From NCBI GenBank assembly GCA_965213675.1, contig OZ243916.1, positions 32,001 to 96,000 on the forward strand: DNA of 64,000 nucleotides, written 5' to 3'. Source of the DNA: an uncultured Candidatus Binatia bacterium (GTDB lineage Bacteria; Desulfobacterota; Binatia; UBA9968; JAJDTQ01). The notes under the pieces were generated by a model, which saw only the letters and a list, made by a program, of their open reading frames with translations, was not told the origin of the DNA and did no database searches. Made by a program: the position numbers and the translations under genes. Positions 20,260 through 47,323 of this stretch are shown one piece after another; position 1 is the first letter of the stretch, and the number at the start of each line of letters is the position of its first letter.

Positions 20260-20424
20260 CTAGTGTGGTGTCTGGATAATTCGGGTCATAATCTGCGGGT
20301 CTTTTTCGCCGTCGGCTGCGTTGCTCTTCCTCGCGTGGTACACGCCACTGCTCGTCATCGCGCCTTGCCGACGACAAAAAATCCTCCGCAGATTATGACC
20401 CGAATTAACCAGACACCACACTAG
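20260..20424. mobile_element. MITE family A, copy 2
   Basis: Near-identical to 1528-1692; the right CTAG contains the TAG stop of the minus-strand M16 gene. Confidence 0.9.
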
Positions 20425-23074: not shown

Positions 23075-23161
23075 GACTTTGAGAATATCGGGCACGCGAG
23101 GCGGGCGCAACAGCGCTCCCGGCGCCGGCATCGCCCCGGCTTCCCGCCCTCCGCGCCGGCT

Positions 23162-29090: not shown

Positions 29091-30392
29091 ATGAAGAATC
29101 CCATCGACGCGGCCGGCCGCCTCGCATCACGAGCCGAGGAAGACGGCGACTTCCGCGAACGTCTTCTCGCGCAACCCCGAGAGACCATCGAGAAGGAACT
29201 CGGCGTGACGCTGGCCGAGGACCATGAGATCCACGTGCACGAGGAAACCTACGGCGCCACGCACGTGGTGCTTCCGCCGCGCGGTAAATTCAGCGCGGCC
29301 GAACGGAAGGAGGCGAAAGCCGGCGCGACATCATTGGAGTTTCTTCGCAAGACGATGCACGATCCCGCGCCGCCCGCTCGTCCCCCGGCCGCTGGAGGGC
29401 CGAGCACCCGGGTGGACGCCGCGACCCCCGAGGCACTGGCAGGGGCGGGCAGGGAAAGCATCCGCCGCGGTCTCGCCTTCCTGGAATCCACCCTCGACGA
29501 ACAGGGGGCCTGGCATTGCATCCGGTTCAACACGGCCGACCCGAACATTCCGCGGCATTTCGAAAGACCTCCCTTCGTATCGGCCCTCTGCGTGCTCGCC
29601 CTGGAAAGCAGCGATGAAGCTCGCGCCAGGGCCATGTGCGCCGCCACCAGGGCGTACCTTGTCAGGACCATCGAGTATCCCGGGTTGTGGCGCTACTACC
29701 GCCACCTGCCCCAGGATCTGGATAGCACCTCGCTCTGCTCGCTTGTCCTCGGGACTCACCCATGGATTGCGCTGGGAAGAAACGTTCCGGCGATATTGGC
29801 GAACCGCGACGAGGAAGGCCGGTTCATGACCTGGGTGCTGGAGGAAGACGAACCCAACGTCGTGGCGACCTTTCGCATCGAGGCGGATCCGGTGGTCAAC
29901 GCCAACGTCATTGCGTATCTGGGCGACCACGCCGAGACCAAGGCTGCCCAACGATGGTTGGAATCGTTGATTGCCGAGGGCCGCCTCGAGGGCTCGTCCA
30001 AGTGGTATCCCGACACGGTGGCCATCTACTATGCCGCCACGCGCGCCATGGTCCGGGCGCGGCCCGCCCTCGATGGACTGCGCCCGATACTCGCCGACCG
30101 TATCCTGGGACTGCGCGACGACAACGGACAATTCGGCGACGTCCTCCGGACCGCGCAGGCCGTGTCGGCGCTCTACAACATTGGATGTCTTGGACGCATC
30201 GACGCCAAACGCCAGGTGGAGAGGTTCGTCGGTTGGCAACGTGAGAACGGGAGCTGGCCGGAGCTGCTCGCGTTCGGCGATCAGTCGTTGAAGTGGGGCG
30301 CGTTCGGACAGATAGGGCATGGCTCCGAAGCCGTGACCTCGGCGTTTTGTATCGAAGCGCTGGAGCGGCTGGTCGAAGTCCTGCGCGCCTGA
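29091..30392 (+). CDS. NHLP leader domain fused to a class II terpene cyclase / prenyltransferase-repeat alpha-alpha barrel domain
   Basis: aa 1-78 align without gaps to the precursor leader; C-terminal part has RRGLAFL, PQDLDSTS, DPVVNANV, SKWYP, QRENGSW, GSEAVTSA. Confidence 0.75.
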   Translation: MKNPIDAAGRLASRAEEDGDFRERLLAQPRETIEKELGVTLAEDHEIHVHEETYGATHVVLPPRGKFSAAERKEAKAGATSLEFLRKTMHDPAPPARPPAAGGPSTRVDAATPEALAGAGRESIRRGLAFLESTLDEQGAWHCIRFNTADPNIPRHFERPPFVSALCVLALESSDEARARAMCAATRAYLVRTIEYPGLWRYYRHLPQDLDSTSLCSLVLGTHPWIALGRNVPAILANRDEEGRFMTWVLEEDEPNVVATFRIEADPVVNANVIAYLGDHAETKAAQRWLESLIAEGRLEGSSKWYPDTVAIYYAATRAMVRARPALDGLRPILADRILGLRDDNGQFGDVLRTAQAVSALYNIGCLGRIDAKRQVERFVGWQRENGSWPELLAFGDQSLKWGAFGQIGHGSEAVTSAFCIEALERLVEVLRA

Positions 30393-30455: not shown

Positions 30456-32852
30456 ATGCCGCAAGATTCAGCCCTGGGAGGGGGCGTGAGCTCGGACAAG
30501 GCTGACATCACGCAGCAGATCGAGCCGTCGGTCCGTAACGCGCTACCGCATTACCTGCCACTGGGCATTTTCCCGCTGCTTCTCGCCGCCGCGATGTACG
30601 GCGGCTGGTGGCTGTTGCCGCCATTTCTCTTCATGAGCGTCGTGGGGCCGCTGGATCGGGCGCTCGGTCCCGACGGCCGCAACATGGACCCGGAGAAAAC
30701 GCCGGAACGCCGGCTGCTCTGGCACAATCTGCCGGTCTGGATCTGGGCGTTTCTGTGGCCGCCGGCGCTCATTTTCGGCATGTGGCAAATCCTGGTCGCG
30801 AATCAGTTCGCGATCTGGGAAGCCGTGATCCTGGTGATTCTTCTGACCATGGAGGCGCAGGCTGTATTCGTGGTGGGTCACGAACTGGTCCACCGGCGCC
30901 TTGCCTGGGAACGGCGTCTCGGAGAATTCCTGCTGGCCTCCGCCTCGTATCCGCAATATTCCACGGAGCATGTCTACATCCACCACGCCAAGGTCGGCAC
31001 TCCGCTCGATGTGGGCTCGGCTCCGAAGGGGGAAAGTTTCTGGAGATATTTCCCCAAGGAAATCGTCAGCAACATCACCAACTCCTGGGAATTCGCCGGC
31101 GAGCGGCTGGCGCGGCGCGGTCTGCCGCGGTGGCACTACAGCAATCAGTTCTGGCGCTACGGCATCGCCGTCCTGTTCTGGTATGGACTGGTGTGGTGGA
31201 TGAGCGGGATCCTCGCCGTGCTGGTCTTTGTCTTTCTCGGCCTGAGCTGCGTCTTCTCGATGAAGATCAGCAACTACTTCCAGCACTACGGTCTGCGCCG
31301 GGTGCGTCAGCCCAACGGCCGTTGGGAAAAGGTGATGCCGCGCCATTCCTGGAACGCGGACTGGAAGTACAGCAACTGGATGTTTTTCAACATGCAGCGC
31401 CATGCGGATCATCATGCGGCGGCGGCACGCCACTACCCGTTGCTCCAGGTCCGCGGCGCCGATGAAGCGCCGGTATTGCCGGGCACCTACGCCGACATGA
31501 TGAACATCGTGCTGCGGCCCAGGCGCTGGTTCGAGAAGATGGACCCGCTGGTGGATCAATGGCGCGCGCATTTCTATCCGGAGATCGATGACTGGAGCGC
31601 CTACGACAGCCCGATTGCGGCGGCGCGGCCGGAAGCCTTCGAGGCCATCGTCGAAATCTTCGGCGCCGCCCCGCGGCTCGCCAGGTGGATCGAACGCAAT
31701 CCGGAGCTTCTGGACAGCCTGCGGGACCGGGAATTCACCGATCTCGACCTGCCGACGGGATTCGGGCCGGATCGGCAGACCGAGGCGATTGCGCGGCGCG
31801 GGCTTGCGCGACTCTATTGGACGGTGGAAATGGGCGTCCAGGACATGAAGGAACTGATCGCCGAAATACCCACGGCGGATGCCAGGGAAACCGCCGAGAT
31901 CGTACGAAACTGGTCCAACGACAAGGCGTTTCAGATCGCTATGCACGTGGTTCGCGGGAACCTGTCGCCGGCCGAGGCAAAGACCGCGCTGTCCAATCTC
32001 GCTGAAGCGTCGATTTCGACCTTGCTTGCCGCCGTGGTGGCGGATGGAGTCGAGCGGTCCGGACCGCTGGGGGCGGGCGGGGTCGCCGCGATATTCCTGG
32101 GCGATCTCGCCAGCCGGGAAGTTTATCCCGGCGTTGCCATCGACATGATGTTCGTTCATGACGGCGGCGAGTCCGGCGAGGAAGAGCGCCTGTGCCGGGG
32201 TTTCCGGGATGCCTTGACCGACCTGGCGCACGACAGCCTGTTGTTCTCCTCGATTCCGCCCGGCTCGAATTCGCTGTCGGCGTTGCCGCTTGCCGGACTG
32301 GCCGAGCATCGCGGCAAGCGTGCTTCCGGGGGAATTCCCGTGCTCACCCGGGCACGGTGCGTGTTCGAGTGCGGCGACTCCGGCATCGGCGGCCGCTTCG
32401 ATGAGGCACGGCGCGAAGCCTTGGCCGGATGCGGGGCGAACGAGCCCCTGATCGGCAAGCTGCGCGAGCCGCTGGAAGGCGCCGCCGAAATCAGCGTGTC
32501 CACATACGCCCGTATGCGCGGAGGGTTGGAGGCTGTCGAGAGGGCCGCGCGCTTCCTGCAGTTGACCAATGGCGGCGCGGGCTCCGACGATCCGGCTCCG
32601 CCCGCCGCGGCGCTGCTTCATGGCGCTGGCGCGGAGCCGCTGGCGCGGGCCGCGTCCCTGTGGCGGGACTTGCAGGGCATCACGCGCCTCATCGGCGGGG
32701 ATGGGTTCGACGCGGCCGCGGCAAGGCCGCGGGTCCAGTCGTTGGTCGCGAGCGCTTGCGGGCACGAGGACTTCGATGCGCTGAAGGCGGCGGTCGCCGA
32801 GACCGCGTCCCGCGCCGCCGCTGAGATCGATGCGCTTCTTTCCCGCGCATGA
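30456..32852 (+). CDS. AlkB-type membrane di-iron monooxygenase/desaturase fused to a degenerate GlnE-like nucleotidyltransferase domain
   Basis: His boxes HELVH, EHVYIHH, NYFQHYG, QRHADHH; C-terminal LSNLAEA, LGDLASRE...IDMMFV, LTRAR, RGGL...FLQL; start uncertain (30417/30456/30486). Confidence 0.8.
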   Translation: MPQDSALGGGVSSDKADITQQIEPSVRNALPHYLPLGIFPLLLAAAMYGGWWLLPPFLFMSVVGPLDRALGPDGRNMDPEKTPERRLLWHNLPVWIWAFLWPPALIFGMWQILVANQFAIWEAVILVILLTMEAQAVFVVGHELVHRRLAWERRLGEFLLASASYPQYSTEHVYIHHAKVGTPLDVGSAPKGESFWRYFPKEIVSNITNSWEFAGERLARRGLPRWHYSNQFWRYGIAVLFWYGLVWWMSGILAVLVFVFLGLSCVFSMKISNYFQHYGLRRVRQPNGRWEKVMPRHSWNADWKYSNWMFFNMQRHADHHAAAARHYPLLQVRGADEAPVLPGTYADMMNIVLRPRRWFEKMDPLVDQWRAHFYPEIDDWSAYDSPIAAARPEAFEAIVEIFGAAPRLARWIERNPELLDSLRDREFTDLDLPTGFGPDRQTEAIARRGLARLYWTVEMGVQDMKELIAEIPTADARETAEIVRNWSNDKAFQIAMHVVRGNLSPAEAKTALSNLAEASISTLLAAVVADGVERSGPLGAGGVAAIFLGDLASREVYPGVAIDMMFVHDGGESGEEERLCRGFRDALTDLAHDSLLFSSIPPGSNSLSALPLAGLAEHRGKRASGGIPVLTRARCVFECGDSGIGGRFDEARREALAGCGANEPLIGKLREPLEGAAEISVSTYARMRGGLEAVERAARFLQLTNGGAGSDDPAPPAAALLHGAGAEPLARAASLWRDLQGITRLIGGDGFDAAAARPRVQSLVASACGHEDFDALKAAVAETASRAAAEIDALLSRA

Positions 32853-35209
32853 AGGCGCCGGAGGTGCCGGCTGATCCGGCGCGGAAGACCCCGATGCAAG
32901 CGCAGACGGACGCGAATCCCCGGCGCGGAATCCTGATCAGGACGACTCCCGCGGACGAGGGTCTCGTCAAGCTTCCCGCGCTTGCTCCGCACCTGCAATT
33001 CCACGATATCGGCGAACAGCAGACCCTGCTGGTCTCCGAGTCGTTCAATACCCTGCTGCACGGCCAGCTGTATGGCGATCTGCTGCCGCTGCTGGACGGC
33101 CGGAACCCGCCGGACGAGATTGCCGGCGCCCTCGAGGGTGCCCATGCCGCCGCCGATGTTCTCGCGGCGATCGTCGCGCTCTCCGCCAAGGGCTATGTGG
33201 TTTCCGCCGATCATGGCCTGGACCGGGGCCGGGCGGCTTACTGGACGTCACTCGGCGCGTCGCCACGCTGGGTCGAACAACGGCTGGCGGAATCGCGCAT
33301 CGCGGTCGAAGGCGGCGACGGCGGGTTCATCCGGCATCTGGAAGAGAGCGGCGCCCGTTTGGGGACTGGCGCCCCCGGGCTCACCGTTGTTGTCTGCGAC
33401 GACTATCTCGGAGCACGCCTTGCGGAAGTGAATCGGCGCCAGCTCGAGGTGAGAGCGCCGTGGACGCTGGTGCGGCCGCGCGGCATGCAGGCGCTCTTCG
33501 GCCCTGTCTTTCCCGCGGACAAACAGGGACCCTGCTGGGAGTGTCTGGCGTACCGCTTGCGCAACCATCAGGAAGTCCACGGTTTCCTGCGCAACATTGC
33601 CGGCGAGGAGGGCGCCTTCAAGCCGTTCGCGGCCCAGCCCGCGGTGCTGGAGGCCCTGTACGGGCTGATGGCGGCGGAGATCGTCAAATGGCTGGTGCTG
33701 GATGAGGCCGCCCCGATTCACGAACGGGCGATGGCGATGAATGTCGGCGCCTTCGCAAGTTCGCAGCATCGGGTCATGCGCCGGCCGCAGTGCCTGGCCT
33801 GTGGCGACGAAGCGTTGCACCGGTCGGATCGATCGCCGGTTCCGCTGCGTCTGAACCCGAGCCCCAAGTGCCATTGCAACAGCGGCGGTGCGCGCTCCGT
33901 GGCGCCGGAGGTCACCCTGGCGAAGTACCGCCACTTGGTGAGCCCGATCAGTGGCGTCGTGACCTGGCTTTCGCGCACCACCGACGAGGCTGATGCCTGG
34001 CTGCATGTCTATTGGGCCGGGAGCAATCTCGGCATGCGAAGCCGGAGCTTGAGCTCGCTCAGACGCAGCCTGCGCAGCAAGAGCGCTGGCAAGGGCAGCA
34101 CACGGGAGCAATCCGAGGTCAGCGCGCTGTGCGAGGCGGTCGAGCGCTATTCGGGCGCCTTTCACGGTGACGAGATCCGCGTCCGCAAGCGATTCAACGA
34201 GTTCGCCGAGGGAGAGGCAATCCATCCCAACGATGCGCAGCTCTTCAGCGACCATCAGCTCGACAACGCGGAGAGCATCAACGCGAAGGGCCATCCCTAC
34301 AACATCGTGCCGCCGCGTCTCGAACCCGACGCCGAGATCGACTGGACGCCGGTGTGGTCGCTTACGCGGCGGCGGCATCGCCATCTGCCGGCGTCCATGC
34401 TTTACAGCATGCCGGCCGAACAGCGCGGCCCCTCGGACCTGATCGCCGATTCCAACGGCTGCGCGGCGGGCAACACGTTGGAAGAGGCCATCCTGCAGGG
34501 TTTCTATGAACTGGCCGAGCGCGATGCGTTCGCCATCTGGTGGTACAACCGCCTGCGAGTGCCCGCGGTCGATCTGGCGAGCTTCGGCGACGAGTATCTG
34601 GCATCGGCCACGGACCATTACGCCCGCTACGAGCGGGACATGTGGATGCTCGACGTCACCTCGGATATCGGCGTTCCCACGTTCGTCGCGCTTTCAAACC
34701 GGCCGGACGCCAAGACCGAGGACATCATCTACGGCGCCGGCGCCCACGCCGACCCGCGCATAGCGGCCCTGCGTGCGGTGTGCGAGTTGAACCAGTGCCT
34801 TACCTGGCTGCCACGTCCCGGAAGCGGCGATGGCCGGCCCATGATCGACGATCCGCTGGCGCTTTGGTGGTGGAAGACGGGGCGACTCGCCGACTGCTCC
34901 TGGCTGGTCCCCGCGGGGGACGTTCCCTTGCGTAGCGCCGCGAGCTATCCGGTGATCGAATCGACCGACACACGCGAGGACGTGGAGTATTGCCGCGGGC
35001 TTGTGGAAGTCAAGGGGATGGAGTTTCTGGTGCTGGACCAGACCCGGCCCGACATCGGTATGCCTGTGGTGCGGGTCATCGTGCCGGGCATGCGCCACTT
35101 TTGGGCAAGATTTGCGCCTGGCCGCCTTTACGAAGTGCCGGTCAGCATGGGCTGCCGGGAACGCCCCCTCGCTGAAGACGAACTGAATCCCGTACCAGTC
35201 ATCGCGTGA
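32849..35209 (+). CDS. srpC: fused RRE/E1-like-YcaO cyclodehydratase (azoline-forming)
   Basis: GPCWECL, RRPQCLACG, VSPISGVV, GKG, SALCEAVER, SNGCAAGNTLEEA, ELAERDA, Pro-rich C-terminus NPVPVIA; symbol recalled from sponge srp clusters. Confidence 0.92.
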   Translation: MKAPEVPADPARKTPMQAQTDANPRRGILIRTTPADEGLVKLPALAPHLQFHDIGEQQTLLVSESFNTLLHGQLYGDLLPLLDGRNPPDEIAGALEGAHAAADVLAAIVALSAKGYVVSADHGLDRGRAAYWTSLGASPRWVEQRLAESRIAVEGGDGGFIRHLEESGARLGTGAPGLTVVVCDDYLGARLAEVNRRQLEVRAPWTLVRPRGMQALFGPVFPADKQGPCWECLAYRLRNHQEVHGFLRNIAGEEGAFKPFAAQPAVLEALYGLMAAEIVKWLVLDEAAPIHERAMAMNVGAFASSQHRVMRRPQCLACGDEALHRSDRSPVPLRLNPSPKCHCNSGGARSVAPEVTLAKYRHLVSPISGVVTWLSRTTDEADAWLHVYWAGSNLGMRSRSLSSLRRSLRSKSAGKGSTREQSEVSALCEAVERYSGAFHGDEIRVRKRFNEFAEGEAIHPNDAQLFSDHQLDNAESINAKGHPYNIVPPRLEPDAEIDWTPVWSLTRRRHRHLPASMLYSMPAEQRGPSDLIADSNGCAAGNTLEEAILQGFYELAERDAFAIWWYNRLRVPAVDLASFGDEYLASATDHYARYERDMWMLDVTSDIGVPTFVALSNRPDAKTEDIIYGAGAHADPRIAALRAVCELNQCLTWLPRPGSGDGRPMIDDPLALWWWKTGRLADCSWLVPAGDVPLRSAASYPVIESTDTREDVEYCRGLVEVKGMEFLVLDQTRPDIGMPVVRVIVPGMRHFWARFAPGRLYEVPVSMGCRERPLAEDELNPVPVIA

Positions 35210-35217
35210 GGAGACAT

Positions 35218-36336
35218 ATGGATATTGACCAGGCCGTTACGCTGACCCAGGACCGTCTCGCCCAGGAGGGGGAGACCATGGGCGACCTGCTCGGGCACTT
35301 CCGAAACAGGGTTTCGCCGGTCCTGGTCGGCGGCCCGCAATGGGAGCGCATACTCGACTGCGCCGGGCAACTCCCCATCACCATGGGCGCCCTGCCGTTC
35401 GGCTTCGAGTTGCCGCTGCACGAGCCCGGGCCCGAGGCCGATTTCGGCGCTTCGCTGGCGAGCGGAACCCGGACGGCGGCGTTCTTCCAGAAGCGCGCCT
35501 GGGCCGATGAGACGGATGAGTCTGCCAGGGCCATCACGCGATTGTTCGGACAAATGGATGCCGGAGATTCACGCCTGCAGGAAATTGTCGGCCGCAAGTT
35601 GATGCTGGAATACGACATCGGCTCGGCGGGAGACGGTGAACGTTCGCATCCGGGCATGTTCCTGCGGCCCGGTGAACGCCCGATTGTCGGAGCCCGCGGC
35701 CAGGTGGATGATGTCCGTACGGTGGTGGATGCGCTCGTTTCCTGCGTCGGTTGGGAGGGGAATGACGCCGAGGGGGAGAACGTCGAACGAGCTTACCTGG
35801 CGCAGCCGGGGGACACGCGCCTGGACTCGTTCGGTGTATTCCCGTCGCGTTCACGGTCCATCCGCTTGGCGATCATGGGCTTCAAGGGGCAGGAGGAACT
35901 ACGTGCCTATCTTGAGGAGGCGGGTTGGCCCGGTCGGCTACCGGCCGTCGACGCCGTGATTTCGCGCTTCAAGGAACGCGCGAATATTGTCAGGACCGGG
36001 GTGAATGTCGACGTACGGGAAGAGGGTCTCGGTCCGACGCTCGGCCTGACGCTCATCGTCAAGCAGAGATATACAAAAGATTCACGTTACTGGCTCGACG
36101 GCCTGACCGACTGGGATCCGTTCCTGGAAGCCCTGGGCCGTGAGGAACTCGTCGTTCCGGAAAAGCTTGCGGAGCTCGCCGGCTGGGTGTCGAAAGCGAC
36201 GCCGCTATTCGGGAAGTCCGGGCGTTTCGTGCTGATGCGCGGCATTCACCACATAAAGCTGGTCATATCCGGCGATCAGCTTCGAGAAGCCAAAGCCTAT
36301 GTGTTCATGGTGCTCTCGGCAGCGGTGCCCTTTTGA
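35218..36336 (+). CDS. hypothetical RiPP-cluster protein, possible ABBA-fold prenyltransferase
   Basis: Coupled to YcaO with GAGGAG RBS; motifs FGFELPL...ADF, LEYD, HHIKLV...EAKAY; the fold call is inference. Confidence 0.55.
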   Translation: MDIDQAVTLTQDRLAQEGETMGDLLGHFRNRVSPVLVGGPQWERILDCAGQLPITMGALPFGFELPLHEPGPEADFGASLASGTRTAAFFQKRAWADETDESARAITRLFGQMDAGDSRLQEIVGRKLMLEYDIGSAGDGERSHPGMFLRPGERPIVGARGQVDDVRTVVDALVSCVGWEGNDAEGENVERAYLAQPGDTRLDSFGVFPSRSRSIRLAIMGFKGQEELRAYLEEAGWPGRLPAVDAVISRFKERANIVRTGVNVDVREEGLGPTLGLTLIVKQRYTKDSRYWLDGLTDWDPFLEALGREELVVPEKLAELAGWVSKATPLFGKSGRFVLMRGIHHIKLVISGDQLREAKAYVFMVLSAAVPF

Positions 36337-36473: not shown

Positions 36474-36725
36474 TTACCAGCAGCAGCAAAGGCCCGCCGA
36501 GATCGCTTCGAGCTGTTCCTCTGTGATGTTCGGATCTGGCGGCAACGCGAGATGCACCGTCTGCATGTCGCTCTCGTGGACCTTGATGGTCATCGAGTCG
36601 GGAATCGTAATGCCCAATTCCCCGCTGATGGTAGCCTTCGGATCCGAGAGAAGTTTCTGCCTGAAATCGGTGTCCAGGGAAGACTTCTCGACAATTTGCT
36701 GCAGCATTTCATCACCACTTCTCAT
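36474..36725 (-). CDS. srpE: NHLP (proteusin) precursor peptide: 78-aa leader, AG cleavage site, core LCCCW
   Basis: DFRQKLLSDPKATI.ELG, VHE, HLALPP, ITEEQLEAISAG|LCCCW; AAGGAGG RBS. Confidence 0.95.
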   Translation of the reverse strand: MRSGDEMLQQIVEKSSLDTDFRQKLLSDPKATISGELGITIPDSMTIKVHESDMQTVHLALPPDPNITEEQLEAISAGLCCCW

Positions 36726-36907: not shown

Positions 36908-39241
36908 CTAGGGCGCAACCGCGGCCGTCTGCCCGGACTTCCGGTCCACCGTCGTCAACAGCGCCGGCAGGAGCGTCAGGTCGGCGACGAGCGCGGAACC
37001 GATGATCATCGCGGTCAGGACCCCCACCTGTGCGGTGGGAACGAACGGCGAGAATACCAGTATGAGGAAGCCGGCCACCAGCACGACCGTCGTTGTGAAC
37101 ATGGCCTGGCCGGCGGTGTCAAAGGCGTGACGCACCGCTTCTTCGGCGCCCAGGCCGTCCTGAGACCGCGCACGGCGGTACTTGCTGAGAAAATGCACGG
37201 TATCGTCCACGACGATGCCTACGGTCATGGCCACCACCACGGACAGCGAGAGTCCCACCTGTCCGACCGTCAAACCCCAGACGCCGAAGCCCAGCACCGC
37301 GGGGACCAGATTGGGAGCGATGCTTATCAGACCCAGCCGCAGCGACTGCAAGGCGAAGAGGAGAATGGCGGAAATGGCCAGCAGCACGACCATGGTCCCG
37401 ACCACCATGGCGCGGATGTTGCGCTGTCCGATGTAGGCGAACAGCGCCGCGGGGCCGGTACTGTTGACGCCGCCGACATGCGGCGCGTTCTCCCTGAGCC
37501 AGGCCTCGGCACGCGCGTTCAGCTCAAGCAGCTCGCGCGAAGAAAGCGTCTCCGCCGATATCGTCACCCGCGTGGCGGACCTGGATCTGTCGAGCTGATT
37601 GTTCAGGTTCAGACCCTGCGGTAGCGAGAGCTCGTAGAGCACCAGGTATTGTGCCGCCAGTTCCTTGCTTTGCGGGATCCGGTAGGCGGCCGGATCGTCG
37701 CCGTGCATGCTCTTGTTGAGTTGCCGAAAGGTGTCGGTGATGACCGCCACGTGGCGTACAGGGGACTGCTGACGGTACCAGTCGGCGAAGTTGGCCACGT
37801 CAGCGAGGAAACGGGGGGCGGTGACACCGCCCTCGACGGATGCCTCCAGTGAGTATTCGATCAGGGTATTGCCGCTCAGGCGTTCGTCCATGAAATCGGT
37901 ATCCTGACGGAACTCGACGCTCTCATCGAAGAAATGGACCAGGACGTCATTGAGCTCGTTTCGCGGAATGGCCAGAATCATCGCGGTCACGACCACCAGC
38001 CATCCCCAGATGATCACCTTTCTGTAGCGCAGCACGGCATCCGCAACGAGCTTCATGACGGGCGCCCGGAGCCGGCGGTCCTTTGCCGCACGAATGGGAA
38101 GAAGCGAAAGCACGGCCGGCAGAAAGGTTACGGACAGAAGGAAGGAGGCGCCGACACCGAAAGCGACGAAGTTGCCCAGGTGACGGTAGGGAGGCACCTC
38201 GGAGAAGTTCATGCTCAGGAAGCCAAGCGTCGTCGTGAGGCTCGCGAGAAACACCGGATGCAGGTTGAGACGGATGGATTCGACGATGGCGTCGTGCCTG
38301 GATTCCCCGGCGCGCAGATGCCGCTGCAAAGCCACCAGCAGGTGCACGCAGTTGGCCACGACGATCATCAGGACGATGGTCGGCGCCGGGGAGATGGGCG
38401 GGGAAAAGGGTAAGCCGGCCCACACTCCCAGGCCCACCGACGCGAGAATGGAAAAGATCATGACCGTTCCGGTGGCTGCCACCCCCGCCCATCCGCGGGT
38501 GAGGATGCCGAGGATCAAGCCCATGAGCAGAAGGCTTGCGGGCAGAAAGATCATCTGGCTGCGGATGGAGGCTTCCACGAAGGTTTGGTTGACCATGACC
38601 GTGCCGACGACGCGGAGGTCCAGGCCGGGAAATCGTTCTTCCGCCTGCGCAGCCACCGATCTGGCGTATTCGGCCACTTCGGTCACGGCCTCCAGCAGGC
38701 CCTCCTCCGGCAGTTCAATGGTGACGCTGACAACGCTGACGTCACCGTTGCGGGCCAGAATACTCCCTGCGATGCGCGGGTCGGACAAGGCGATGGCGCG
38801 GACTCGGGACCGTGTTTCGGCCTGGGTCAGCTTTTGCGGGTCCACCAGGTCCCGCACGTACAAGTCGTCGCCGTCGGCGGTCGTGTATTGAAAGTTGGCG
38901 AGGGAGTCGACGCGCCTCGTGTAGGGTGTCCGCCAAGCGGCTTCCGTGAGCCAGACGGCGGCCGCGAGCGCGTCTGGCGACGTGGCGTCGCCATCGTCGG
39001 GAACGATCAGGAACGCGACGTTTTCGTTCTTCCCGTAAGTGTCCTCCAGCGCTTCCAGTGCCAGAAGCTGCGGATTGTCCTCGTCGAAGAAGATGCGGTA
39101 GTTGGCGGAGAATTCGAGCCGGGCAATGCCGCCGGCCGCCGCCGCGACCCACAACAGCGTGGCCAGGATGACCAGCCAGCGGCGGGCGAGCACCCACCTG
39201 GCGAATCGGGTCGCAAGTGGCTCTGTGGCTCCGGACGGCAT
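36908..39241 (-). CDS. MMPL/RND family transporter
   Basis: Two-repeat architecture, LASLTTTLGF.S, GIVVDDTVHFLSKY. Confidence 0.9.
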   Translation of the reverse strand: MPSGATEPLATRFARWVLARRWLVILATLLWVAAAAGGIARLEFSANYRIFFDEDNPQLLALEALEDTYGKNENVAFLIVPDDGDATSPDALAAAVWLTEAAWRTPYTRRVDSLANFQYTTADGDDLYVRDLVDPQKLTQAETRSRVRAIALSDPRIAGSILARNGDVSVVSVTIELPEEGLLEAVTEVAEYARSVAAQAEERFPGLDLRVVGTVMVNQTFVEASIRSQMIFLPASLLLMGLILGILTRGWAGVAATGTVMIFSILASVGLGVWAGLPFSPPISPAPTIVLMIVVANCVHLLVALQRHLRAGESRHDAIVESIRLNLHPVFLASLTTTLGFLSMNFSEVPPYRHLGNFVAFGVGASFLLSVTFLPAVLSLLPIRAAKDRRLRAPVMKLVADAVLRYRKVIIWGWLVVVTAMILAIPRNELNDVLVHFFDESVEFRQDTDFMDERLSGNTLIEYSLEASVEGGVTAPRFLADVANFADWYRQQSPVRHVAVITDTFRQLNKSMHGDDPAAYRIPQSKELAAQYLVLYELSLPQGLNLNNQLDRSRSATRVTISAETLSSRELLELNARAEAWLRENAPHVGGVNSTGPAALFAYIGQRNIRAMVVGTMVVLLAISAILLFALQSLRLGLISIAPNLVPAVLGFGVWGLTVGQVGLSLSVVVAMTVGIVVDDTVHFLSKYRRARSQDGLGAEEAVRHAFDTAGQAMFTTTVVLVAGFLILVFSPFVPTAQVGVLTAMIIGSALVADLTLLPALLTTVDRKSGQTAAVAP

Positions 39242-39304: not shown

Positions 39305-42238
39305 TCAGGCGATCTGCCTTCGGACCAGTTCCCTGAACACCCCGTCGACCTCCAGGAGTTCCTCGAAGGAGCCGCTCTGCACGACTTTTCCGGCCTGCAG
39401 CACGTAGATGCGGTCCGCCTGTTCCAGCGTGGACAGGCGGTGGGCGATGACGATGCGGGTCGACGTCAGCAAGGCCAGGTTCTGCATGACCTCGGCCTGG
39501 CCTTCGTTGTCGAGCCAGTTGGTTGCCTCGTCCAGCAGCATGATCCGCGGGTCGCCGAGCAGCGAGCGGGCGATGGTGACGCGCTGACTCTCGCCTCCCG
39601 ACAGCACGCCCCCGATGGCCCCGACCATGGTCATCATGCCCATGGGCATGGCCTTGATCTCGCTTTCGATCCCGGCGGCCCGGGACGCTTGCCATACCTC
39701 CTCGGTGGTCGTTCCCTCGTGGTGCGAGACGATGTTGTCCCAGAGGTCCTGGGGATGGAGCCTCACGGCCTGGGGAACCGCGCCAATCTTCCGGCGCACC
39801 TGTTTCAAATTCAGGTATCTCAGATCGCGGCCGTCGTAGTACACCGCGCCGGCGGTCGGCCGGTCGATGCCGAGGGCGAGCCGGAACAGGGTGCTCTTGC
39901 CGGCACCGGACTCGCCGGCAATCGCGATGAATTCACCGGGACGGGCGCGGATCGTGACATCGTCGAGAATCAACGGACCGTCGGAGTCGTAGCGGAAGGA
40001 GATACGGTCGAACAGGACGTCGCCCCCCAGGCGTTCCACCGGCTCTCCCTCGACGTCGGACTCGGGAACCGTGGCGAGCAGCGGGCGCATCTGGTCGAAC
40101 GCGGGCAGCATTGCGGCAACGGCGCCGAAGGACTCGCCGAGCCGTGCGATGGCGGACTGGAAAGCGATGAAGACGGTGTAAACGACGAGAAAATCGCCCA
40201 CTGGGACGTTGCGCTCGCTCGCCGTGACCACCGAGAAAAGCAGCACCCCGGCGGCAAGGTAGGGAAGCGCTGCGCCGAGTGCCCGCGAGTGTCCCTCGAG
40301 CGCCCCCAGTTCGAGTTCCGCGCGTTTCTGCTCGCGATAATCCCGCGCCCAGATGGCGAAGGCCGACCCTTCCGCATTTTCCACGCGCAGCTTGGCGATA
40401 CCGCCCACGATCTGGAACAGCCGCCCGGCGACGCGGCGCACCGCGCTGATCATCCGCCCATAAGGTGCAATCTGGCGCAACCCAAGGGCCACCGTGACCA
40501 GCAGCGAAGCCGCGCTGAAGACGAGGGCGATGACTCCGAGGGTGGTGTCGTAGAAGAAGATGACGCCAAAGACCGGGAGCAGGAAAACGATCGACAGCAG
40601 GCCGTCGGCGACGACTCCCTGAAAGCCGTCGCGAAGATTCTGGAACGTCATTCCCGCCATGGCCAGATCGCCCGCCGGATGGCGGTGCAGAATGCTTGGC
40701 GGAAGGCGCATGAGGCGGTCCCAGAAGGCGGCTTCGACGCGGGATGCCGAGCGTCCTTCGAGCCGCATCATCGCCGAGCTTTGAAACAGGTGCAGCAGTG
40801 CGCCGAGCAGGCCGAAGCCGGCGAGCGTCGCGGCCACCGCATAGAGCGCGCTGGCACTTCCCCCGGCCACGACGTGGTTCGCGACGAATCCAAGCGCGAG
40901 TGCCGGCAGCAGCTTGATCAGGCCGCCCGGGAGCCCGGCAATCACCAGCCGCGCCAGATCCGCGGCCGATCCATGCAGGGCGATTCTCATCAGGTCCGCC
41001 GGTTTCACGTCCTCTGGCGGCAACGGCTGATAGAATACCCAGGCTTCGTCCTGCAGCGCGCCGGCGCGCTCCTCCGTGAGCCGGACACGGCGTTTGCTGA
41101 CGGGGTCCACTTCCTGGTAGCGCCCGAAGATTCCCGGCAAGAGCGCAACGGGCCGGCCGTCCTCGGCGCGGAATGCCAGCATCGCGTTGCTGTCGCCGCG
41201 CCACCAGTTGCCCTCGCCCTTGAAGCGCACGCGCCGGGCGCGTACGCCCGACGCATCGAGTACGTCCACGAGGCCGACCGGAGCACCGGCGGGTCCCGAG
41301 CGCGCCGGGATCCTGAAGTCGATTCCCTGATGGCGGCCGACGATTTGCAGGGCATCCGCGGTAGCCGTGTCCTCGGCCCTGGCTTCCCGGTCCATCGGCA
41401 GGTCGTAGATGTTGAAAAGCCGCTGTCGGGCGGCTCTTTCGGCGGTGCGGCGGCTGGCTGTCCGCTCGCGTTCGAGATTCGCATCATCGACTACGGCCAA
41501 CCGGCGGTTCAGGCGTTCCACGGCGAAGGCCAACCCGTGAAACGACGCGAGCGCCGGCAGCAGCGTGCCTTGCCGCGCCAGCGTTTCGGTTGATTCGCCC
41601 GACAGTGTCGCTTCACCAAACAACGTGAGCCAAGCCGTCCGCGTCAGCGGTATCGCGGCTTCGGGTGCGCCGCTTGCTTCAGCGAGTTCCGTCGGCCCGA
41701 TCATATCCATGAAAAGGCTTACGCCGCGAGGCGGTGTGGACACCCACACGACACCGCGCCGCACGGACAGCGTACAAGCGGCCAGCGTCTGCGTCACCCC
41801 GGGTCCGGCCAGCGCGGTGGCGCGCGGGATGTGACTTACGAGCCGTGAAAGCGTATCGGTCACGGCGGTAAGCCAGGTGTCGGTCTGTTCGGCCAGCTCT
41901 GCCGGATGAACGCCGGACAGCAAGGATGCCGGCAGGCGTTTCAGCAGGGTACCCGGCAATCCCTTGGCGATCACCCTGAGCGTGGTGTCGCCGCCATTGT
42001 CGTCTTGTTCGTCCGGCGCGACGCCCCACAGCAATCTGCCCGATCCGCAACGCAGCAGATGCTGCGGCGCCGCCTGCTGCACGCCGTCCCTGAATTCGAC
42101 CAGGAAGAGATCGGCGACGCCCTGATCGATGAACCAGACGCTATCCGGATCGTCGAGGTTCACCGGCAGGTTGCCGGCGCAGGGCTCGGATGTGCCCGAG
42201 CGGGCGGCGAGTTGGGCTATGGTTGCGTGTTCCGGCAT
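39305..42238 (-). CDS. NHLP system ABC transporter, permease/ATP-binding subunit without peptidase
   Basis: WWRGD..AMLAF, WDRLMRLP, GESGAGKST, LSGGE.QR, LLDEAT, IAHRLST. Confidence 0.9.
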   Translation of the reverse strand: MPEHATIAQLAARSGTSEPCAGNLPVNLDDPDSVWFIDQGVADLFLVEFRDGVQQAAPQHLLRCGSGRLLWGVAPDEQDDNGGDTTLRVIAKGLPGTLLKRLPASLLSGVHPAELAEQTDTWLTAVTDTLSRLVSHIPRATALAGPGVTQTLAACTLSVRRGVVWVSTPPRGVSLFMDMIGPTELAEASGAPEAAIPLTRTAWLTLFGEATLSGESTETLARQGTLLPALASFHGLAFAVERLNRRLAVVDDANLERERTASRRTAERAARQRLFNIYDLPMDREARAEDTATADALQIVGRHQGIDFRIPARSGPAGAPVGLVDVLDASGVRARRVRFKGEGNWWRGDSNAMLAFRAEDGRPVALLPGIFGRYQEVDPVSKRRVRLTEERAGALQDEAWVFYQPLPPEDVKPADLMRIALHGSAADLARLVIAGLPGGLIKLLPALALGFVANHVVAGGSASALYAVAATLAGFGLLGALLHLFQSSAMMRLEGRSASRVEAAFWDRLMRLPPSILHRHPAGDLAMAGMTFQNLRDGFQGVVADGLLSIVFLLPVFGVIFFYDTTLGVIALVFSAASLLVTVALGLRQIAPYGRMISAVRRVAGRLFQIVGGIAKLRVENAEGSAFAIWARDYREQKRAELELGALEGHSRALGAALPYLAAGVLLFSVVTASERNVPVGDFLVVYTVFIAFQSAIARLGESFGAVAAMLPAFDQMRPLLATVPESDVEGEPVERLGGDVLFDRISFRYDSDGPLILDDVTIRARPGEFIAIAGESGAGKSTLFRLALGIDRPTAGAVYYDGRDLRYLNLKQVRRKIGAVPQAVRLHPQDLWDNIVSHHEGTTTEEVWQASRAAGIESEIKAMPMGMMTMVGAIGGVLSGGESQRVTIARSLLGDPRIMLLDEATNWLDNEGQAEVMQNLALLTSTRIVIAHRLSTLEQADRIYVLQAGKVVQSGSFEELLEVDGVFRELVRRQIA

Positions 42239-42248
42239 GGGGCCTGCA

Positions 42249-44459
42249 TCAGCCTGACTTGACCAGCTTGAAGTACGTGCCGTCCCGGTCCGCCATCAAC
42301 TCGTCGTGGGTGCCGCGCTGCACTTCCACGCCCTTGTCGAGAACGATGATCTGGTCGCAGTCCCTCACGGTGCTCAGCCGGTGCGCCACGATCAGGCAGG
42401 TGACGCCGCGGCGCCGCAAGGCATCATCGACGTATTCCTCCGTCGCGGCATCGAGCGCGCTGGTCGCTTCGTCCAGAACGAGCACCGTCGGATTGCCCAC
42501 CAGCGCCCGGGCGATTTCCAGCCTTTGCCGCTGGCCGCCGCTGAAATTCACCCCGCCTTCCTCGACCAGGGTCGCATATCCGTGGGGCCGGAGCAGGATT
42601 TCTTCGTGGATGCAGGCGTCCCGCGTTGCGGCCACGATGACTTCATCCGGAACGGCCGGGTTCCACAAGGTGATGTTGTCGCGCAGGGAGGCGGAAAACA
42701 GCACTGCCTCCTGATCCACCATGGAAATGGACCGCCGCAGCACTTCCACGGGAATCTCATCCCGCGGATGGCCGTCGAACAGGATCTCGCCCGACCAGGG
42801 TTGAGAGATGCCCGAGACCAGACGCGCCAGGGTCGACTTTCCCGAGCCGCTGGGACCCACCACGGCAACCCGCTGCCCAGGCCTGATCACGAGGTTGAAG
42901 TCCTTGATCAAGGGCGGCCGGCTCTTGTTGTAACCGAAGTTGACGTCGCGCAGTTCGAGGCGGCCTGCAAGCTGAAGCCGGCCGTTGAACGTGGGGATGG
43001 ACTCCGATTCGGGACTTCGACGGCTGAAAACGGGGTCCTCGGCGGTCCTGGAGACGTCTTCCAGTCGTTGCAGATCGGTTTCGAGGGCGTGGCGTTTGTC
43101 GGCGAACTCCAGAAAGCGTCCGACAGGCGCCAGGAACATCTCGGCCAGGATATAGAACCCGACCAGCGTCCCCAGGGTCATTTGTCCGGTCATGACCAGG
43201 CTTCCTCCGATGCCCAGGATCGCCGCGGCGCGAAGCGCGGTGACCAGGCCCGGAAGCGCGGTACTGACGGAGGCCAGCTCGGAATAGAGCTGGCGCGCGC
43301 GCAGTTCGCGCGCCTGCTGACCGCTCCAGCGCGAGAAGAACCGATCATCCGACCCCGTCATGCGCAGGTTGTCCGCGTGACTCAACATCTGCATTCCGAA
43401 GCCGATCAGCAGTCCCTGTTCGCGCCTCATCGCGTGGCTTCGGACGTCCCGGAGCGCGTTGAGAAAGTGGGCCAGCAGTCCGTGCAGGAGGGCCAGCAGC
43501 ACGATGATCAGGGTGAGCAGGACGTCGTAGGCCAGCATGGCGAAGAGCAACACCGCGCTCATCGCCATGTCGATGAGAAGCACGAGAAACTGCTCCGTCA
43601 GGTTCTTCGCGATCCTGTCGATGGACGAGACCCGGTCGGTCAAATCGCCCACCAGCCTGTGTTCGAAAAACTCCACCGGCAACCGCAGCAGCCGGGACAG
43701 GCCCCGGTTGTAGCCGACAACGGAAATCCGCACCGCGAGCCGTTTGAGGAATCGGTGCTTGAGCAGAGACAGCACGTACACCAGCACGCCGCCGCCGAGC
43801 AACGCTGCCACCAAACCGCCCCAAGGCCCATGGTTTTCCAGAACGTTGTCCACGAAAACACCGAGGGACACGGGGACCAGCAGCGCCAGCAAGGTCAACA
43901 TGAGCACGCAGGCAAGCACCCCGGTAAGCACGTTCCATGATCCGGCCAGCAAGGTGCGCAATTGGCTGAACAGGCCGGGCCGTTCGCCGCCCGCCGTGAA
44001 ATCGGCGCCGCGCTTGAACTGTAGCGCGATGCCACTGTAGCTCTTGGTGAACTCTTCCGCGGAAAGCGTGCGCCGCCCCGTGGCCGGGTCATTGAGGTGG
44101 AAATTGCGGCTGTCGAACCCTTCGAGGACGACGAAATGGCTGAACTGCCAGAACAGGATCAGGGGCAACGGGAGCTTCTTCAGTGAGTCGGCGCGTAGGC
44201 TGAGCCCCCTGCATTCGAGGCCGTAGTGCCTGGAGGCGCGCGAGATGCTCGCCGCGCTGCTGCCGTCCCGGCTGACCTCGCACTTCTCGCGCAACTCGGC
44301 AAGCGGCACCCAGCGCCCGAAGTAGCCCAGAATGCTGCCGAGGCAGGCGGCGCCACATTCCGTCGCGTGCATCTGCAACAGAATCGGCGTGGTCACCCTT
44401 CGTTTCGACGGATCCGCGCCGGCCCTGTTGTCTGCCCCCCTGGACGCGCGCGGCTGCAT
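42249..44459 (-). CDS. NHLP system peptidase-containing ABC transporter (C39/permease/ATPase)
   Basis: LQMHATECGAACL, HFVV.EG, NDPA.GRR, GPSGSGKST, FSGGQRQR. Confidence 0.93.
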   Translation of the reverse strand: MQPRASRGADNRAGADPSKRRVTTPILLQMHATECGAACLGSILGYFGRWVPLAELREKCEVSRDGSSAASISRASRHYGLECRGLSLRADSLKKLPLPLILFWQFSHFVVLEGFDSRNFHLNDPATGRRTLSAEEFTKSYSGIALQFKRGADFTAGGERPGLFSQLRTLLAGSWNVLTGVLACVLMLTLLALLVPVSLGVFVDNVLENHGPWGGLVAALLGGGVLVYVLSLLKHRFLKRLAVRISVVGYNRGLSRLLRLPVEFFEHRLVGDLTDRVSSIDRIAKNLTEQFLVLLIDMAMSAVLLFAMLAYDVLLTLIIVLLALLHGLLAHFLNALRDVRSHAMRREQGLLIGFGMQMLSHADNLRMTGSDDRFFSRWSGQQARELRARQLYSELASVSTALPGLVTALRAAAILGIGGSLVMTGQMTLGTLVGFYILAEMFLAPVGRFLEFADKRHALETDLQRLEDVSRTAEDPVFSRRSPESESIPTFNGRLQLAGRLELRDVNFGYNKSRPPLIKDFNLVIRPGQRVAVVGPSGSGKSTLARLVSGISQPWSGEILFDGHPRDEIPVEVLRRSISMVDQEAVLFSASLRDNITLWNPAVPDEVIVAATRDACIHEEILLRPHGYATLVEEGGVNFSGGQRQRLEIARALVGNPTVLVLDEATSALDAATEEYVDDALRRRGVTCLIVAHRLSTVRDCDQIIVLDKGVEVQRGTHDELMADRDGTYFKLVKSG

Positions 44460-45167: not shown

Positions 45168-46064
45168 ATGTCCATGACGGGACCCGCGCGGATGCTCCTT
45201 GACAGTGAAACCGTCGGAAAATGGCTCATCAACCCGGGTTGGGCCAAGGGTATCCGGCGTCTCCGGGGTGCTTGGTTCGGTGTCCGGGTCCTGGCGCTGG
45301 CGTGTTTCTGCTTGCCGAATGCACATGCCCTTGCCCAGGAAGAAACGCCCGAGGACAAAGGTCTCAGGATCGCGCGTGAAGCGAGCGTCCGCGACGACGG
45401 CTTCGGGGATTTCATCGCCGGAATGACCATGGTGTTGCGCGACCGGCACGGCCGGGAAAGCGTCCGCCGGATGCGCTTCAAGGTGCTGGAGGTGCCGCGG
45501 GATGGCGACAAGAGCCTGTTCGTTTTCGATCAGCCGCGGGACGTGCGGGGAACCGCCCTGCTGACCCACGCTCACACCAACGCCCCGGACGACCAATGGC
45601 TCTATCTGCCTGCCCTGAAGAGGGTAAAGCGCATCAACGCCGCGAGGCGTTCGGGGTCGTTCATGGGAAGCGAGTTTTCCTACGAAGACATGAGTTCCCA
45701 GGACGTGGAGGAATACACCCACAAGTATCTTCGCGACGAGTCCTGTGGCGGACTCACTTGCACGGTGACCGAGCAGGTTCCCCTGGACAAGAAGTCCGGG
45801 TACAGCCGCAAGGTCGTCTGGCAGGATACCGGCGAGCTTCGAGTCTGGAAAATGGAGCTTTACGACCGTCGGGGCTCGCACCTGAAGACGCTTACCTTCG
45901 CCAACTATCAGCAATATCTGGATCGGTACTGGCGGGCGGGAGAACAGACGATGGTGAATCACCTGACCGGAGCGAGCACGGTGCTCCAATGGACCGATTT
46001 CCGCTTCCGCACCAATCTTCAGGACAGCGAATTCAACCACTTGTCGCTTCGACGCGTGCGCTGA
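45168..46064 (+). CDS. outer membrane lipoprotein-sorting (LolA-like) protein
   Basis: P.DV.GTALL, DDQWLYLPALKRVKRI, SFMGSEFSYED, YDRRG..LKTL; start uncertain. Confidence 0.88.
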   Translation: MSMTGPARMLLDSETVGKWLINPGWAKGIRRLRGAWFGVRVLALACFCLPNAHALAQEETPEDKGLRIAREASVRDDGFGDFIAGMTMVLRDRHGRESVRRMRFKVLEVPRDGDKSLFVFDQPRDVRGTALLTHAHTNAPDDQWLYLPALKRVKRINAARRSGSFMGSEFSYEDMSSQDVEEYTHKYLRDESCGGLTCTVTEQVPLDKKSGYSRKVVWQDTGELRVWKMELYDRRGSHLKTLTFANYQQYLDRYWRAGEQTMVNHLTGASTVLQWTDFRFRTNLQDSEFNHLSLRRVR

Positions 46065-47293: not shown

Positions 47294-47323
47294 TGGCCCC
47301 GACACCTGTGGAGTTCCAGTAGC

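Follow-up and report, generated by a model that had tools for sequence, protein, structure and literature searches.

The srp gene clusters were reportedly described, by Nguyen et al. in J Am Chem Soc in 2021 (10.1021/jacs.1c03474), as the source of sponge-derived proteusins, which are peptides synthesized by ribosomes and modified after translation (RiPPs). In the available parts of the srp literature, the defining traits of these clusters are an LCCCW core, a terminal Trp that becomes brominated and an ITEEQL leader motif, and within sponge microbiomes they are ranked with the natural-product clusters that are shared most widely and transcribed at the highest levels, with a final product and an ecological role that are unknown (10.1101/2023.06.09.544420, PMC12426817). 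Three proteins have been assigned there: SrpC is the YcaO enzyme, which makes three thiazolines but, alone, was poorly active and could not be purified, SrpE is the precursor and SrpI is the brominase (PMC10286304). Here we analyse a 64,000-nucleotide (nt) stretch of DNA from an uncultured Candidatus Binatia bacterium (assembly GCA_965213675.1, contig OZ243916.1, positions 32,001 to 96,000 of the forward strand; hereafter the window) and, within it, a gene whose 798-residue product joins an AlkB-type oxygenase to a GlnE adenylyltransferase-type domain. This fusion gene is a fixed, uncharacterized member of the known srp peptide cluster. Its product, an intact membrane AlkB-type iron enzyme carrying a dead GlnE-type domain, most likely oxidizes a lipophilic side group borne by the peptide.

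Each half of the protein has described relatives. AlkB enzymes act on terminal methyl groups, which they hydroxylate, and on terminal alkenes, which they epoxidize; their C-terminus is cytoplasmic, and the wider set of membrane His-box enzymes includes many desaturases. In Fontimonas thermophila, AlkB is naturally fused to a rubredoxin, AlkG (PDB 8f6t and 8sbb). GlnE is a protein of about 950 residues with two nucleotidyltransferase domains in tandem, a removase and a transferase, and its E. coli domains are available as structures 3k7d and 1v4a.

Architecture of the fusion protein

The ATG of the fusion gene has a GGAGG 11 bases upstream. A longer frame would start at GTG 30417, but the homologues share the Met at 30456 as start, and M1 is nearly invariant among 56 aligned sequences whose overall identity reaches down to 32%. 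The AlphaFold2 (AF2) model of the 798-residue fusion, built from this 56-row alignment, has a mean pLDDT of 88.1 and a pTM of 0.85, and fold searches with it (Foldseek, VIA) list only AlkB and nucleotidyltransferase relatives. The original prediction, made from the sequence and its translations, had divided the protein into an AlkB-type and a GlnE adenylyltransferase-type part, and Pfam, phmmer and AF2-model alignments agree with this division. Pfam and NCBIfam scans gave no match to an RRE, a winged-helix leader-binding domain, in the fusion; the adjoining YcaO protein has one.

For the N-terminal half, the Pfam family FA_desaturase spans residues 121–331 (E 3.2e-25), and a phmmer search of PDB sequences with the first 370 residues retrieved the AlkB entries 8f6t (E 3e-45) and 8sbb (E 1.6e-37). 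When aligned by VIA, residues 22–387 of the model match AlkB 8f6t with Z 38.7 and a root-mean-square deviation (rmsd) of 2.6 Å over 353 aligned residues, against Z 5.0 for stearoyl-CoA desaturase SCD1. The three His boxes and the HYG motif that had been read from the sequence are all present, in agreement with the family patterns HE..H[KR], EH...HH, QRH.DHH and NY..HYGL, and the predicted model has the six-transmembrane-helix fold of the AlkB family. Seven of the nine di-iron His are invariant across the 56 aligned fusions, and the other two, H142 and H146, are missing solely from one gapped row.

The fusion thus has in common with the AlkB alkane 1-monooxygenases, the F. thermophila protein included, the six-helix fold, the nine-His site and the HYG motif, and with the F. 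thermophila protein also the joining of an additional domain at the cytoplasmic C-terminus. The differences are that the added domain is a dead nucleotidyltransferase here and an electron carrier there, that identity to the solved AlkBs is just 26–28%, and that the gene stands in a RiPP operon instead of an alk operon, in a host genome without a rubredoxin match. The GlnE-like domain occupies the very place of the electron donor in this natural fusion. Taken together, sequence and model point to the N-terminal half as a putatively functional AlkB-family membrane di-iron oxygenase, an activity to which, jointly with the explanation of the whole protein given below, we assign about even chances.

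The GlnE-type domain and its lost motifs

A phmmer pass of residues 371–798 against 1.84 billion representatives gave 456 matches at E ≤ 1e-3, of which 59 reached E ≤ 1e-30. The closest relatives that are not fusions are true GlnE proteins of 1013 residues, which align across the whole domain (P0160, E 9.4e-46, 35% identity; P0193, E 2.5e-23). Pfam GlnE (PF03710) matches residues 461–573 with E 6.8e-8 and 32.6 bits against a cut-off of 24, so that the profile search supports a relationship first proposed from the short strings RNPELLDSL, LSNLAEA, LTRAR and RGGL..FLQL, all of which occur in the translation; the NCBIfam GlnE equivalog PRK14108 scores 63 bits, far under its 724-bit cut-off. At the level of structure, VIA aligned the model with the E. 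coli GlnE domains 1v4a (Z 29.0; model residues 376–796, 379 aligned, rmsd 3.7) and 3k7d (Z 27.1) and with the GlnE-like AMPylase DrrA (6yx5, Z 18.5), and Foldseek gave E-values of 7.2e-10 for 3k7d and 2.6e-8 for another GlnE-type match. The whole-domain fold and the family motifs RG.L.P.EA and GG..D.E are therefore shared with GlnE, whereas the fusion has one domain rather than two, is without the catalytic motifs and is joined to a membrane enzyme. The fusion gene is also the sole PF03710 match of the genome, which suggests that the organism is without a canonical GlnE.

The loss of the nucleotidyltransferase motif, which the original prediction had noticed, is borne out by alignment: E. coli GlnE reads GKLGG.E...SDLDL where the fusion reads GDLASRE...VAIDM, and the third carboxylate motif (VDMRLRPSG in true GlnE) is deleted. 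When 11 true-GlnE rows were aligned with 13 AlkB fusions and five sequences of the RND-transporter fusion type (described below), every fusion proved to be without the third carboxylate motif VD.RLRPSG, and the G-K-L-G / D-x-D pair survives in none of them. At the first metal position, 561, the four commonest residues in 45 srp-type sequences are Ala (27), Gly (6), Ser (4) and Glu (4). The GlnE-like domain has no conserved Cys cluster, C768 alone being nearly invariant. On the strength of these motifs, the C-terminal domain is best termed a pseudo-nucleotidyltransferase.

To quantify selection, ω was calculated by the Nei–Gojobori method for 54 sequences, namely the window and 53 loci, with 1235 of the 1431 pairs having dS of 0.05–1.2. 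The value is 0.12 for the AlkB part and equally 0.12 for residues 361–510, the helical start of the GlnE-like domain, and it rises to 0.30 for the core (residues 511–660) and 0.32 for residues 661–798. Purifying selection acts on both halves of the fusion, and the catalytic GlnE positions drift freely, which fits a non-catalytic role of the GlnE-like domain. The invariant residues of the C-terminal half are confined to residues 369–500.

We consider it very unlikely that the domain is still an enzyme, that is, a nucleotidyl- or phosphotransferase with a rearranged site that acts on the peptide, on a partner protein or on a lipid. In favour of this, purifying selection acts on a domain that is complete, and the second metal position, 563, is acidic in 33 of the 45 srp-type sequences (Asp in 22, Glu in 11) and, as Asp or Glu, in all 11 diverged fusions; but the same position is Asn (6) or Arg (4) in 10 of the 45 close homologues, the glycine and lysine of G-K-L-G, the first Asp and the third-carboxylate motif are gone from all aligned AlkB fusions, and conservation is strongest in the helical residues 361–510 and not in the core sheet.

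The same type of degenerate GlnE-like domain forms the C-terminus of proteins of about 1520 residues (P0175, P0185, P0156) that are otherwise AcrB-type RND transporters, with 24–30% identity to the C-terminal half of AlkB fusion P0144. Such RND fusions are found in 15 of 30 gammaproteobacterial genomes also carrying srp, and the one at L167:1498-6075 (−) in genome G001 is 100% identical to P0175. The occurrence of the domain on RND pumps as well fits a portable, membrane-proximal interaction module.

Linkage to the srp cluster

The cluster in the window is an srp cluster, a RiPP cluster with an LCCCW core and an NHLP leader, and the fusion gene is the second gene of its conserved operon. The cluster encodes an 83-residue NHLP precursor, whose C-terminal end reads ...ITEEQLEAISAGLCCCW, together with a YcaO enzyme and a Trp halogenase. 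In its NHLP precursor (...ITEEQLEAISAG-LCCCW), fused E1-like/YcaO protein, Trp halogenase, NHLP-type ABC exporters and occurrence in metagenome-assembled genomes (MAGs) of many phyla, it is like the published srp clusters, from which the window locus, a member, has no cluster-level difference. The start codon of the YcaO gene overlaps the stop codon of the fusion gene (ATGA). Because the gene order (gene, fusion, YcaO, gene, precursor) fits the published letters, with C the YcaO enzyme and E the precursor, the fusion gene probably corresponds to 'srpB' in the published description.

A protein search found at least 120 sequence clusters of 784–813 residues and 75–100% identity, with PF00487 in 120 of 120 and PF03710 in 99. 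Scanning one genome per species gave 167 relatives, and linkage was counted in the best 80 of these 167 loci (61–90% identity), which come from MAGs titled Binatia/Deltaproteobacteria, Acidobacteriota, Alpha-/Gammaproteobacteria, Nitrospirota, Nitrospinota and unclassified bacteria; fusions with 30–43% identity in the C-terminal domain (P0133, P0136, P0140, P0142, P0144, P0163, P0176, P0177, P0184) stand outside these counts. The fusion lies inside such an srp-type cluster in all 80. The YcaO gene follows directly 3′ of it in 79, the remaining locus, L038, being a contig end. A 372-residue protein, predicted to have an ABBA aromatic-prenyltransferase fold, is encoded in 74 of the 80, with all six absences at contig ends, and a 433-residue protein, which combines an NHLP-like with a class II cyclase-like domain, likewise in 74, with four absences where there is no upstream sequence and two true absences (L005 and L035). 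A precursor with 78% identity or more was found in 68 loci; nine of its 12 absences are contig ends, and the other three, L007, L024 and L035, are fully flanked. LCCCW is the core in 66 of the 68 loci and LCCSW in the other two, and a halogenase lies within the flanks of 50 of the 80 loci. In L056, the fusion and YcaO appeared as a single frame of 1571 residues, which we rejected as an artefact, since a run of N (a scaffold gap) at L056:5598-5697 bridges the two genes.

Two clusters of diverged type extend this picture. In L087 (L087:5767-14079), a metagenome variant with the core RCCCCW, the fusion is 46% identical, YcaO 60% and the 372-residue protein 43%; YcaO and the ABBA-fold gene are divergent in orientation from the fusion, and no cyclase-like gene was seen. 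The second, L180 (L180:5115-10303; G004:C180), is a sub-cluster that shares its genome with the main srp cluster, 16 kb away, and has neither a YcaO nor a cyclase-like gene of its own. Its fusion is 49% identical, a homologue of the 372-residue protein (38%) begins 15 nt past the end of the fusion's tblastn match, its precursor ends in AAGLCCCL without a Trp, and it also encodes a C39-ABC exporter and an ABC exporter. Besides the fusion, both diverged types have retained the ABBA-fold protein and an NHLP precursor rich in Cys.

In a metagenome scan with AlkB-motif patterns, 78 of the 80 retained loci match the AlkB half only, the fusions being L087 and the partial L088, and a search of 30 gammaproteobacterial genomes for a fusion of the P0144 type returned only srp-type copies (best 45% identity) and the RND fusions. 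In every locus examined, the AlkB/GlnE-like fusion is confined to LCCCW-type RiPP clusters, counting the variants RCCCCW, LCCCL and LCCSW among them, a question that the original prediction had raised.

Median dS between fusion genes from MAGs labelled as different phyla is about 0.8, a low value that indicates that the gene moves with the cluster. On the sequence evidence, this fits a recent spread of the srp cluster by horizontal transfer; horizontal spread is also stated in the part of the srp literature available (10.1101/2023.06.09.544420). That the gene encodes an ordinary alkane hydroxylase or a housekeeping lipid desaturase and merely adjoins RiPP genes is extremely improbable. It is the sole AlkB-like gene of the genome, which would suit such a role, but its place between the NHLP-cyclase gene and YcaO is fixed across many phyla, it overlaps the YcaO start and travels with the cluster, and its product is distant from the solved AlkBs in a genome that has no rubredoxin match.

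Neighbours of a predicted isoprenoid type

The start of the 372-residue protein was placed at ATG 35218, behind a GGAG, from the homologue consensus MDI...; the list of open reading frames gives GTG 35206. The AF2 model of this protein (pLDDT 90.6, pTM 0.90) had 65 Foldseek matches at E ≤ 1e-3, and all 33 that were listed are ABBA aromatic prenyltransferases, among them EpzP (1.4e-5), 6-DMATS, CloQ, DMATS1, NphB-type, FamD1, AmbP3, the cyanobactin enzyme PatF and TleC. A language-model look-up also gave the prenyltransferase direction (0.88–0.90), which we treat as a lead only. The protein is thus confidently predicted to fold as an ABBA aromatic prenyltransferase.

In the 433-residue protein upstream of the fusion, a Pro/Ala-rich linker separates an N-terminal NHLP-leader-like domain (TIGR03793, E 3.8e-11, below the cut-off; NHLP structure 8tb1, E 4.8e-6) from a C-terminal part that matches bacterial class II cyclases of the drimenol synthase type (9mhs, E 8e-6; 9m7d, E 5e-5). 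SQHop_cyclase_C matches 32 of the 33 members, and all 33 share an unchanged D-L-D-S-[TS] at residues 209–213, which resembles the D-x-D-D-T-A acid motif of class II enzymes. By its sequence, this protein appears to be a 'leader-tagged' enzyme rather than a precursor. The MMPL/HpnN-like pump and the LolA-like protein encoded farther along suggest a lipid-type transport flavour of the cluster.

As a functional analogy, an ABBA-fold protein, an oxygenase for an aliphatic chain and a class II cyclase-like protein encoded together recall the logic of meroterpenoid and (oxido)squalene pathways. Here, in contrast to those pathways, a thiazoline peptide of ribosomal origin would be the acceptor, the cyclase-like protein bears an NHLP-like tag and the oxygenase is of the AlkB type and not a flavin or P450 enzyme.

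A proposed role in srp maturation

Given the chemistry of AlkB enzymes and the neighbours of apparent isoprenoid type, oxidation of a peptide-attached isoprenoid by the AlkB domain is the most economical interpretation. We propose, at about even confidence, that the fusion works in the srp RiPP pathway as an oxidative tailoring enzyme, with its dead GlnE domain serving for docking or as a scaffold at the cytoplasmic face of the membrane. In this scheme, the YcaO enzyme would make thiazolines in the LCCCW core, and the halogenase would brominate the C-terminal Trp, as expected from their homology to SrpC and SrpI, respectively. The ABBA-fold protein, judged by its fold, may attach an isoprenoid, and the AlkB domain, judged by the chemistry of its family and by gene linkage, would hydroxylate or epoxidize this appendage. 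Where the cluster is of the main type, the appendage may next be cyclized by the NHLP-tagged class II cyclase-like protein, and the lipidic product would leave by way of the C39/ABC exporters and the MMPL/LolA-like pair.

The original prediction had also proposed that the di-iron domain may hydroxylate or desaturate a lipophilic appendage or, as a second option, oxidize the thiazolines, for which the evidence here is neutral. It had further supposed that the pseudo-enzyme domain now serves to bind a peptide or protein, a conceivable role with which the selection pattern is in keeping. Its observations are confirmed and its interpretation is partly supported: such an appendage gains indirect support from the ABBA fold, the class II cyclase-like neighbour, the MMPL/HpnN-like pump and the LolA-like protein, whereas the chemistry of its oxidation is something that we infer.

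For the GlnE-like domain, a docking or scaffold module is the most likely role. Its partner could be the precursor's structured NHLP, the NHLP-like domain in the 433-residue protein or the YcaO enzyme, the last hinted at by the stop/start overlap of the two genes and by the reported poor behaviour of SrpC alone. A complex prediction of the full-length fusion with the precursor scored 0.00, which gives no verdict and counts as evidence neither way.

A fuller version, in which the mature srp product is a peptide–terpenoid hybrid rather than just a brominated pentapeptide with thiazolines, is considerably more doubtful. While bound to its leader, the core would be prenylated by the ABBA-fold protein, the terminal isoprene would be oxidized by the AlkB domain, and the NHLP-tagged cyclase would close the chain; the GlnE-like module, for recognition or as a scaffold, would hold the NHLP domains of precursor and cyclase, or YcaO, at the membrane. 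We put this forward tentatively, as a single joint claim.

Several observations weigh against the proposed oxidation of an isoprenoid by the fusion. The first concerns electrons. Rubredoxin (PF00301) has no match in the whole genome (97.7% complete, 8% contamination), and no Pyr_redox_2 or Fer2 match lies within 24000–50000 of the window, the nearest ones being far outside the cluster, so the absence of a nearby rubredoxin or reductase that had been noted earlier holds on a wider scale. The linked or fused rubredoxin or rubredoxin reductase of the AlkB family is therefore missing; electrons for the AlkB domain must come from an unlinked donor, and another donor than rubredoxin may serve. The second concerns the C-terminal half: six gammaproteobacterial loci (L071-L074, L076, L077) have lost roughly residues 650–780 in frame and kept the last ~15, which leaves open reading frames of 680 and 658 residues without ~120–140 residues of the last subdomain, so that this subdomain, at least, is dispensable. 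As for the appendage, Trp, whose indole would be the obvious acceptor, is missing from the LCCCL variant, L087 and L180 are without a cyclase-like gene, and the available parts of the srp literature compared report no prenylated srp product. The 372-residue protein, moreover, has no match in Pfam, NCBIfam or a profile search of PDB sequences, and thus no profile tie to prenyltransferases, and the TM-scores of its ABBA matches are a modest 0.39–0.53. Finally, the original 2021 description of srp may already annotate or test the fusion gene.

The main rival explanation is that the di-iron domain acts on the peptide itself as a desaturase that turns thiazolines into thiazoles, in place of the FMN-dependent azoline dehydrogenase of other NHLP/YcaO clusters. 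Its appeal is that the cluster has no SagB-type dehydrogenase, that its YcaO is the only one in the genome and adjoins the fusion with overlapping stop and start, and that desaturases are common among membrane His-box enzymes. Within the parts of the literature available, the related mpr pathway employs an FMN oxidase, MprD (PMC12455567), and srp products are termed azol(in)e-containing (10.1101/2023.06.09.544420). The domain, however, belongs to the AlkB hydroxylase branch by its HYG motif and its far closer match to AlkB than to SCD1, the fusion of L180 accompanies an ABBA-fold gene and not a YcaO gene, and the sole SagB-like match of the genome lies ~1.37 Mb away. It would, besides, be unusual for an alkane channel buried in the membrane to take a polar, leader-bound peptide as substrate. 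We therefore regard thiazoline desaturation as unlikely.

A little less probable still is hydroxylation of an aliphatic C–H of the core peptide, for example at the terminal methyl of the N-terminal Leu, with no isoprenoid involved. Leu stands first in the LCCCW, LCCSW and LCCCL cores, and hydroxylation of terminal methyl groups is AlkB chemistry; yet the RCCCCW variant, in which Arg replaces this Leu, still retains the fusion, and the co-conserved ABBA-fold and cyclase-like genes would be left unexplained. Oxidation of a peptide-attached isoprenoid would account for these genes and is the explanation that we prefer.

Gene map

The coordinates of the fusion, its motifs and the other cluster genes are collected in Table 1.

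Table 1 Features of the fusion gene and the surrounding srp cluster (positions in the window)
Feature	Position	Strand	Details
AlkB/GlnE-like fusion gene	30456..32852	+	ATG 30456 to TGA 32850-32852; 798 aa
AlkB-type six-helix di-iron oxygenase domain	30456..31616	+	aa ~1-387; structure and sequence matches
His box 1, GHELVHRR (HELVHR, aa 142-147)	30876..30899	+	aa 141-148; H142, H146 present in 55/56, remaining row gapped
His box 2, EHVYIHH	30966..30986	+	aa 171-177; H172, H176, H177 invariant 56/56
AlkB-specific HYG motif, NYFQHYGL	31272..31295	+	aa 273-280; Y274, H277, Y278, G279, L280 invariant 56/56
His box 3, MQRHADHHA (QRHADHH, aa 314-320)	31392..31418	+	aa 313-321; R315, H316, H319, H320 invariant 56/56
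GlnE adenylyltransferase-type domain	31581..32849	+	aa ~376-798; helical N-subdomain, pol-beta-type nucleotidyltransferase core, helical C-subdomain
Degenerate nucleotide/metal motif, FLGDLASRE...GVAIDMMFVHD	32094..32162	+	aa 547-569
433-aa gene, NHLP-leader-like domain and class II terpene-cyclase-like alpha/alpha domain	29091..30392	+	
YcaO cyclodehydratase (SrpC type)	32849..35209	+	leader-binding/E1-like N-terminus
372-aa protein, predicted ABBA aromatic-prenyltransferase fold	35218..36336	+	
Precursor peptide (SrpE type)	36474..36725	-	83 aa; NHLP leader, ...ITEEQLEAISAG / LCCCW core
MMPL / HAE3 / HpnN-like RND transporter	36908..39241	-	
NHLP bacteriocin export ABC transporter	39305..42238	-	permease/ATPase subunit
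NHLP-family C39 peptidase / ABC exporter	42249..44459	-	
LolA-like lipoprotein-sorting-type protein	45168..46064	+	
Flavin-dependent Trp-halogenase family protein	47324..48595	+	SrpI-type candidate; start codon uncertain

Upstream of the cluster lie genes at 20421-23131 (−), 24570-25460 (+), 25506-26549 (−), 26729-27949 (−) and 28167-29063 (+); this stretch encodes an M16 peptidase pair, chlorite-dismutase-family and ornithine cyclodeaminase-family proteins, an MFS transporter and a binding protein of the NMT1/TAXI type, the last of which adjoins the cluster in just 6 of the 80 loci. Between the LolA-like gene and the halogenase, 45596-47305 of the window holds overlapping frames of 565 residues (+) and 367 residues (−), neither with a Pfam match. 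Two more genes of the Trp-halogenase family lie elsewhere in the genome, at C1:1160231-1161310 and C1:1227533-1228885.

Discussion

The cluster itself was already known. In the available parts of the srp literature compared, to which the original 2021 description does not belong, only SrpC, SrpE and SrpI are characterized and no desaturase or AlkB gene is mentioned, and the part checked for 'GlnE' or 'adenylyl' contains neither term. The literature searched yielded no AlkB-family enzyme in the maturation of a ribosomal peptide, and nothing relevant on proteusins with a prenyltransferase or terpene cyclase or on srpA, srpB and srpD. A GlnE-derived pseudoenzyme is not known to serve as an accessory domain of membrane proteins; none occurs in the literature compared, and no search was aimed at such cases. 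Neither the architecture of the fusion nor the apparent fitness of three core genes, as judged from sequences and models, for handling isoprenoids is described in the literature compared.

Our analysis characterizes the remaining core genes of srp as those of an AlkB-type oxygenase that is intact but joined to a dead GlnE module, an ABBA-fold protein and an NHLP-tagged class II cyclase-like protein. It also predicts the missing srp chemistry in concrete terms, namely mass shifts of prenylation, followed by +16 Da. If the proposed role is true, the dead GlnE domain would be a module of a new kind, for recognition or as a scaffold.

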